From a virus: 33,070 nt of DNA. Below the pieces are notes generated by a model. It saw only the letters and a program-made list of their open reading frames with translations, searched no databases and had not been told where the DNA came from. The stretch lies in the UHGV virus genome UHGV-1834275, one strand, 5' to 3'. This document shows positions 1 through 486 of this stretch, in pieces; position 1 is the stretch's first letter; each line of letters opens with the position of its first letter. Position numbers and translations under genes: made by a program.

Positions 1-341
1 TACAGCGGTGCAGTGGCTGACGGACAACGGTTCAGCGTATACCGCGTATGAAACGTGGAGGTTCGCGAGAGAGCTGAATCTGGAGCCCTGCACAACAGCG
101 GTGAGCAGCCCGCAGAGTAATGGCATGGCCGAACGGTTCGTGAAAACGATGAAAGAAGACTATATCGCGTTCATGCCAAAACCGGATGTGAGAACAGCAC
201 TGCGAAACCTTGCAGTAGCGTTCACGCATTACAATGAAAACCACCCGCACAGCGCGCTGGGATATCACTCCCCGAGGGAATACCGGCGGCAGCGGACATC
301 GTTAACTTAAGATACAAAAGCTGTTCGGAGATGGAGGGTCA
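1..341 (+). mobile_element. Right-hand portion of an IS3-family (IS2-like) insertion sequence; continues beyond the window start
   Basis: Contains the C-terminal transposase ORF (8..310). Sequence is visibly GC-richer than everything downstream, and composition switches to AT-rich phage DNA at about 340-350. Exact terminus not determined; a terminal ...GGAGGGTCA ends near 341. Confidence 0.65.
8..310 (+). CDS. IS3-family transposase OrfB (DDE integrase catalytic domain), C-terminal fragment truncated by the window edge
   Basis: Translation WLTDNGSAY...[40 protein letters not shown]...[23 protein letters not shown] closely follows the conserved C-terminus of IS2-group OrfB transposases as I recall it (WLTDNGS.Y...ET..FAR.LGLEP..TAV.SP.SNG.AE.FVKT.K.DYI..MPKPD...[20 protein letters not shown]). 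Confidence 0.85.
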
Positions 342-486
342 AGATCACACCCGTAGCACCGATACCATCACCTTGATAGTTATTGAAGATAAACTCTTTA
401 TCATCCTGTGTTAGTTGTTTATCTGAATGTACTAACTCCATCACTTTATTGTGATTAGCAGATTCCTTTTTGCTAATTCTTGCCAT
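307..486 (-). pseudogene. Possible 5' remnant of a phage gene disrupted by the IS insertion (59 codons; last ~11 codons are IS-derived)
   Basis: Minus-strand [51 protein letters not shown] continues into the GC-rich IS sequence ([11 protein letters not shown]) and stops there. No convincing Shine-Dalgarno sequence upstream, so this is tentative. Confidence 0.3.

Follow-up and report, generated by a model that had tools for sequence, protein, structure and literature searches.

Insertion of an IS2-group element into codon 47 of a methyltransferase gene at the edge of an Escherichia coli prophage

In this study we analysed a window of 33,070 nucleotides, the whole stretch of DNA presented as UHGV virus genome UHGV-1834275, which begins in an insertion sequence (IS) and continues as prophage DNA of E. 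coli. The arrangement is best explained by the transposition of a 1336-bp IS of the IS3 family, IS2 group, into codon 47 of an accessory prophage gene, that of an orphan SAM-dependent methyltransferase. The insertion would have left a null allele of this gene and caused no other loss; we put the probability of this reading at roughly 90%. An IS in an accessory gene of a prophage is an event of a known and ordinary kind.

The window starts inside the IS, so that only the last 347 bp of the element (its 3′ end, positions 1 to 347, + strand) are present. Measured in 100-nt windows, the GC content was 0.51-0.58 within positions 1 to 350 and dropped to 0.33-0.40 beyond. Positions 1 to 347 were 100% identical to the IS copy in L001 and to an element on the E. 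coli plasmid NZ_CP091757 annotated as 'IS3 family transposase (programmed frameshift)', and copies from 29 E. coli records of RefSeq shared at least 99% identity with them. The translation of positions 2 to 310 (+ strand) comprises the C-terminal 102 codons of the transposase OrfB with its DDE/rve domain, closed by a TAA stop at 308 to 310, and it matched the Pfam families rve_3 (E=1.2e-16) and rve. Among plasmids, 1986 records matched the IS, 1576 of them from Klebsiella. A specific name for the element was not found: RefSeq and PLSDB give only 'IS3 family transposase', and a literature search likewise returned no relevant match.

Full copies of the IS are 1336 bp long (TGATG…GATCA; TGATGTAGCC…GTCAAGATCA), their ends being set by the divergence of independent flanks, and they carry imperfect terminal inverted repeats ending 5′-TG…CA-3′. 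It is in these full copies that an OrfA with an HTH and OrfB are seen to overlap, with a programmed −1 frameshift and a joined CDS in RefSeq; in the IS copy of contig L009, a 131-aa HTH_Tnp_1 ORF overlaps a 293-aa rve ORF. The right terminal inverted repeat lies at positions 308 to 347 of the window, is about 40 bp long and imperfect, and ends in …CA. Comparing the left repeat with the reverse complement of the right one by eye, we found the blocks TGAT, CCG(G/A)ACAG and TGTATCT in both. The right terminus of the IS (…CAAGATCA / …GGAGGGTCAAGATCA) ends exactly at base 347: identity between the window and four further copies, in five independent contexts, runs to this base and is lost at the next.

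The original prediction had described the element as IS2-like, which is correct for the family (IS3) and the group (IS2) and does not extend to IS2 proper. Nucleotide identity to IS2A of strain MG1655 was 69.5% over 1167 nt, and the C-terminus of OrfB was 72% identical at the amino acid level to residues 193-288 of the IS2 protein InsD. By ISfinder convention, copies of the same IS share about 95% amino acid identity or more. With only 69.5% nucleotide and 72% amino acid identity to IS2A and InsD, the element differs from IS2, and IS2 itself was ruled out as its identity.

From the phage side, positions 348 to 7519 were 100.000% identical to loci in which the gene is uninterrupted (L005/L008), and the alignment starts exactly at 348. 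The boundary is thus fixed from both sides, since identity with the IS stops at 347 and identity with the uninterrupted prophages starts at 348. The uninterrupted junction reads …GGTGCTACGGGTG|CTTTCTTTACTCCC (…GATGAFFTP…), versus …GGGTG|TGATCTTGACC in the window.

An ORF of 59 codons on the − strand (positions 307 to 486) crosses this boundary. It begins in phage DNA with an ATG at 486 and ends in the IS with a TAA stop at 309-307. Phage DNA supplies codons 1-46 (positions 349-486), the junction falls within codon 47, and 12 further codons and the stop belong to the IS, so that the last 13 residues come from the IS end with its terminal repeat, read on the antisense strand. The phage part (positions 348 to 486, − strand), consisting of 46 codons and the first base of codon 47, was 100% identical to L005:7034-7172, and the uninterrupted loci encode a 237-aa protein that begins with the same 46 residues as the ORF. 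There the gene continues after this stub with GCTTTCTTTACTCCC (AFFTP), at the place where the window has IS DNA. The 59-aa product contains no catalytic motif and had no Pfam match.

These results agree with the original prediction in several respects. It had placed an abrupt change in composition near positions 341-350, and the GC drop beyond 350 and the IS/phage boundary at 347/348 bear this out. It had also proposed that a minus-strand ORF starts in phage DNA and terminates in the IS and that a phage gene is thereby truncated, as is indeed the case: the N-terminus of the 237-aa protein is followed by IS-encoded residues. Two observations that would refute it had been named, and neither holds: the exact end of the IS, at 347, falls inside the ORF, 38 nt ahead of the stop in reading direction, so the ORF is not intact phage sequence; and in the intact relatives the gene is present, encoding the 237-aa methyltransferase.

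Positions 307-486 might be taken for a genuine small phage gene that merely adjoins the IS. The ORF has an ATG and a promoter-like site upstream, and it has been called as a gene in public assemblies; a collection of 15 billion proteins contained the 59-aa chimera (P0001) at 100% identity from 9 contigs. However, the ORF shares its residues 1-46 with the 237-aa protein, which is conserved in 960 homologues, residues 47-59 derive from the terminal repeat of the IS, antisense to the transposase, and the ORF matches no family. We therefore give the small-gene explanation practically no chance.

The region upstream of the truncated gene (positions 487 to 555, − strand) is held in common with a divergent 69-aa ORF (positions 535-744, + strand), which had no family match. 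A consensus scan of 487-555 found the promoter-like hexamers TTCAAA at 555-550 and TATAAT ending at 526, a weak signal with one such site against a mean of 2.2 in shuffled sequences. Between the two divergent genes, positions 496-514 hold a palindrome with 7-bp arms (CCGTACA…TGTACGG), which might act as an operator or form a terminator-like hairpin.

The window starts in a repeat, and the carriers of the junction that we found are all metagenome or read-archive assemblies, with no closed isolate genomes among them. Both points would fit an assembly artefact in which the end of a phage contig was chimerically joined to IS reads and no real insertion took place. Against this, the break lies exactly at the biological terminus of the IS. 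Moreover, the identical 347/348 junction was found in 10 contigs of JGI and ENA assemblies and in one Logan contig (L013), which stops 30 nt into the IS; this recurrence shows that the junction is not an assembly artefact of one sample. Carrier samples include JGI 3300029473, ENA ERZ27271682 and ERR1190601. The junction contigs come from different assemblers, reach 30, 141, 347 and 1346 nt into the IS, and are free of any admixed uninterrupted allele. Taken together, these observations make an artefact very improbable, and we continue with a real insertion.

The uninterrupted gene (L005:7034-7747, 237 aa) is present in L005-L008 and L010-L012, and 45 contigs carry the recorded uninterrupted allele, which also occurs in the isolate GCA_003293115.1. 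Its product matched phrog_3820, 'DNA methyltransferase', over residues 1-237 (E=5e-106), and Pfam gave sub-threshold methyltransferase matches only. At E≤1e-5 the protein had 960 homologues; among the 120 listed, most are enterobacterial, and the names given by the sources are 'methyltransferase' or 'class I SAM-dependent methyltransferase'. In an alignment of 18 homologues, the segments G46-AFFTP51, L71-CAGIG76 (SAM-binding motif I) and N133-PPFG137 (motif IV) were invariant or nearly so. The uninterrupted allele has ELCAGIG at residues 70-76 and NPPF at 133-136, and this motif IV is of the amino-methyltransferase type.

Structure prediction pointed the same way. An AF2 model was made for P0021, a cluster representative 94% identical to the 237-aa protein, and showed a Rossmann methyltransferase fold (pLDDT 85.8, pTM 0.87). 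With this model, Foldseek retrieved PH1948, Ta1320, RlmKL, KsgA and M.TaqI at E-values of 3e-9 to 1e-7. The best fold matches in the PDB are nucleic-acid N-methyltransferases, type I M subunits included, among which DNA and RNA enzymes are not separable. A single-sequence search of the 237-aa protein against the PDB gave nothing meaningful, and a profile search of PDB sequences pointed weakly in the same direction as the model (E=0.0015-0.03, 12-19% identity). The PHROG label suggests DNA as the substrate, as do an Eco57I-family Pfam match (PF07669) on one homologue (P0139) and a short patch of 70-75% identity between the 5′ end of the gene and a gene of Cronobacter phage GAP32 annotated as DNA methyltransferase. 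We conclude that the interrupted gene encodes an orphan SAM-dependent methyltransferase of the NPPF amino-methyltransferase type, belonging to phrog_3820.

The insertion lies just ahead of the FFTP motif, and every catalytic element of the enzyme is consequently lost. Motif I and motif IV are both located beyond residue 46 and are missing from the product encoded in the window; as the 59-aa peptide contains neither FFTP nor ELCAGIG nor NPPF, the allele is null for the methyltransferase. Transcription from the gene's own upstream region would yield a peptide of 46 native and 13 IS-encoded residues. Phage DNA, and possibly host DNA as well, would be expected to lose one modification; the functions for lysogeny, replication, packaging and lysis should all be retained. 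The gene is probably dispensable.

The prophage is approximately 33.7 kb long, encodes a serine integrase and is located between rimO and bssR of E. coli; its GC content is 29-43% in 1-kb windows. In uninterrupted copies, the genes for the tail tip (1100 aa), small ORFs, a lysozyme, a SegE-like GIY-YIG endonuclease and a holin-like protein are followed by those for a 246-aa protein, the 69-aa ORF (on the opposite strand), the methyltransferase and a DUF2188 protein, past which come the host genes bssR, yliI, gstB, dacC and deoR. At the other end of the prophage, the gene for the 632-aa serine integrase (positions 31172-33070) starts 43 bp from rimO in uninterrupted copies. All of 5,425 complete E. 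coli genomes match only from approximately 0.4 kb beyond the methyltransferase stop, so that the phage/host junction falls between rimO and bssR, in their intergenic region. The methyltransferase gene is thus the last but one on the bssR side and comes after the tail and lysis genes.

This position identifies the methyltransferase gene as an accessory gene at the attR-proximal edge of the prophage. The original prediction had proposed that an early or replication function was disrupted, and this was not borne out: the gene is situated past the tail and lysis genes, and only the DUF2188 gene separates it from the junction at bssR. By megablast, none of 5,426 complete RefSeq E. coli genomes contained the final 1.45 kb on the right side of the prophage, where the methyltransferase and DUF2188 genes lie. 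The 7.6 kb beside the IS (positions 348-8000) had no close relative in 50,697 phage records, where it matched only in short patches of 70-75% identity.

The original prediction further supposed that the insertion had left a defective, domesticated prophage. The window gives no support for this. Positions 348-33070 are covered by L005 (348-7519), L024 (3600-26626) and L017 (23172-33070), each 100.000% identical to the window and without gaps; L005 and L017 are parts of one contig, which carries the uninterrupted methyltransferase gene. The ORFs for the serine integrase, TerS, TerL, portal, capsid, head-tail joining protein, major tail, tape measure, distal tail and tail-tip proteins, 1008-aa fibre, lysozyme and holin-like protein are full-length, with lengths equal to those in relatives. 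The IS insertion is the only lesion visible in the window, and the identity of the rest with uninterrupted copies indicates that it is recent. No repressor or replication gene was recognisable in any copy of the prophage, which is a trait of this type of phage and not of the allele in the window. The window ends short of only the last ~0.98 kb of the prophage. In uninterrupted copies attR lies about 1 kb beyond the IS, outside the window, and loss of this attR end is the only route by which the prophage could have been locked in.

Several very AT-rich accessory ORFs were observed elsewhere in the window (positions 779-1519, − strand; 23764-25094, + strand; 26548-28002, + strand), two blocks being opposite in strand to the structural genes. 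They comprise the 246-aa protein, a predicted membrane protein of no family, and a 312-aa PLDc_2 nuclease-like protein with, after it, a 124-aa ORF; further AT-rich ORFs encode a 236-aa protein and then a 232-aa 8xMP membrane protein. These ORFs look like candidates for cargo or defence functions. In addition, the window contains three genes of the homing-endonuclease type (positions 2769-3206, 25619-26344 and 29709-30194), one SegE-like GIY-YIG and two HNH/NUMOD4. The 161-aa HNH gene is shorter or uncalled in some relatives (L019-L021), suggesting that it is mobile endonuclease cargo.

Target duplications of the IS were found at other sites. Three chromosomal copies, each an independent insertion, have perfect direct repeats of 16, 15 and 15 bp on either side (L003:495-510 / 1847-1862; L004:496-510 / 1847-1861; and the flanks in L030). 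When the IS and one 15-bp repeat were removed from the copy in ydeE, the remaining sequence matched the intact ydeE of other E. coli genomes at 100% identity; the repeat is single-copy in these empty sites, so the repeats are true target duplications. IS3-family elements make target duplications of 3-5 bp, and IS2 one of 5 bp. At 15-16 bp, the duplications of the three chromosomal copies lie outside this range, and we know of no description of such lengths for the IS3 family.

These lengths allow the unseen side of the insertion to be predicted. If the insertion was simple, the target-site copy at positions 348 to 363, CACCCGTAGCACCGA(T), should recur at the left end of the IS. The left junction would then read GCATTTCGGGAGTAAAGAAAG + CACCCGTAGCACCGA(T) + TGATGTAGCCCCCTGAAACACC on the + strand; in gene orientation, the left end of the IS (…GGGGGCTACATCA) would be followed by 15-16 bp, (A)TCGGTGCTACGGGTG, and then by CTTTCTTTACTCCCG…. 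The left end of the IS and any target duplication lie beyond the window, and the event was probably a simple transposition.

Only one contig, from JGI (L009/L015), crosses the whole IS. It leads into 424 bp of plasmid-like DNA (L009:8519-8942) with 94% identity to sequence located downstream of the omptin gene kop on the Klebsiella-type plasmid pDETEC13, with no direct repeat between the two flanks of the IS and hence no target duplication. Such a contig would be expected if the IS marked a larger rearrangement. An adjacent deletion or IS-IS recombination, after or instead of simple transposition, would have removed or relocated the distal 0.98 kb with methyltransferase codons 47-237, the DUF2188 gene, attR and possibly host DNA, and an otherwise intact prophage would have become unable to excise. 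However, short-read metagenome assemblies are notoriously prone to chimeric joins at a multicopy IS of 1.3 kb. Moreover, the IS in L009 is another variant than that in the window: it measures 1346 bp and differs by a 10-bp indel and by SNPs within window positions 1-60, and these differences in the interior suggest that copies were mixed. A chimeric path through the multicopy repeat is more likely than a real IS-mediated rearrangement between prophage and plasmid. With its plasmid-like DNA, missing target duplication and different IS variant, L009/L015 was rejected as an unreliable guide to the far side.

Searches for the far side gave further results that would fit such a rearrangement. The other junction (left IS end, 0-20 nt, rest of the gene) had 0 matches in JGI metagenome contigs and IMG/VR, and neither did a 32-mer from the middle of the gene have any in the JGI contigs and IMG/VR; however, both scans ran without a positive control. 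The known 347/348 junction itself had 0 matches in IMG/VR, indicating that IMG/VR does not contain this element and that its negatives carry little weight. We also predicted nine C-terminal remnant ORFs, which allow for each possible start codon given a target duplication of 0-20 bp, and looked them up in the collection of 15 billion proteins. None of the nine was present (0/9), whereas the N-terminal 59-aa chimera, serving as positive control, was found; yet such a remnant, if located at the edge of a contig, would be called as a partial protein, and partial calls of this kind are missed by exact look-up. On this evidence we regard a larger rearrangement as rather unlikely, and simple transposition into the methyltransferase gene is retained as our reading of the event.

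In related E. coli prophages, other, independent lesions were observed in the same methyltransferase gene. A genuine IS3 (100% to 'IS3-like element IS3') is inserted directly after codon 163; the terminal TGA of IS3 provides the stop, and the contigs end in the IS (P0142, L034-L037; L034:3001-3616). In another allele, a TGG-to-TAG change removes the invariant W223 (P0144, L038:1210-1878), and a further allele is without about the first 49 codons (P0100, L042:3001-3570). The disrupted prophages occupy the same chromosomal site, and four separate lesions are known if the allele of the window is included. This recurrence suggests either that selection on the gene is relaxed or that, in lysogens, the enzyme is selected against. 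As a tentative proposal, which we think has the odds against it, the insertion in the window might be one of several independent knock-outs that were selected because the enzyme is harmful to the lysogen, made in this case by an IS that generates duplications of 15-16 bp. If this were true, selection might act, for example, because the enzyme conflicts with methylation-dependent restriction or with the methylation patterns of the host.

In terms of general phage biology, the insertion carries little weight. It explains why the contig breaks and why a spurious 59-aa gene has been called. For annotation, the ORF at positions 307-486 should be labelled as a methyltransferase pseudogene fragment, and the prophage should not be scored as defective on account of the IS insertion. 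Two side observations could merit a modest follow-up: the repeated inactivation of an orphan methyltransferase in related E. coli prophages and the unusually long target duplications of 15-16 bp made by an IS2-group element.

Compared with IS2 of E. coli K-12, the element has the same two-ORF transposase with a programmed frameshift, an HTH in OrfA and an rve DDE domain in OrfB, a similar length of ~1.33 kb, and imperfect terminal repeats of ~40 bp with the same block pattern and a right end in CA. In contrast to IS2, its left end begins with TG (TA in IS2), its chromosomal copies carry target duplications of 15-16 bp (5 bp in IS2), and it is found mostly on Klebsiella plasmids.

The insertion also resembles IS-disrupted prophage genes known from E. 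coli, for instance those of cryptic lambdoid prophages, in producing a truncated chimeric ORF and a break in the contig. Unlike in the IS-hit cryptic lambdoid prophages, the rest of this prophage is without decay, and the gene that was hit is an accessory one.

The uninterrupted allele, finally, is comparable with phage orphan DNA methyltransferases of PHROG 3820, for which M.TaqI, a gamma-type N6-adenine enzyme, serves as structural reference. It has FFTP, then (E/D)LCAGIG, then NPPF in this order and a predicted Rossmann methyltransferase fold, no cognate restriction gene adjoins it, and its location at the prophage edge is like that of other accessory genes. Unlike M.TaqI, it has no comparable target-recognition domain, and its similarity to solved enzymes is very low. 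Relative to the enzymes of PHROG 3820, the allele in the window retains residues 1-46 only.
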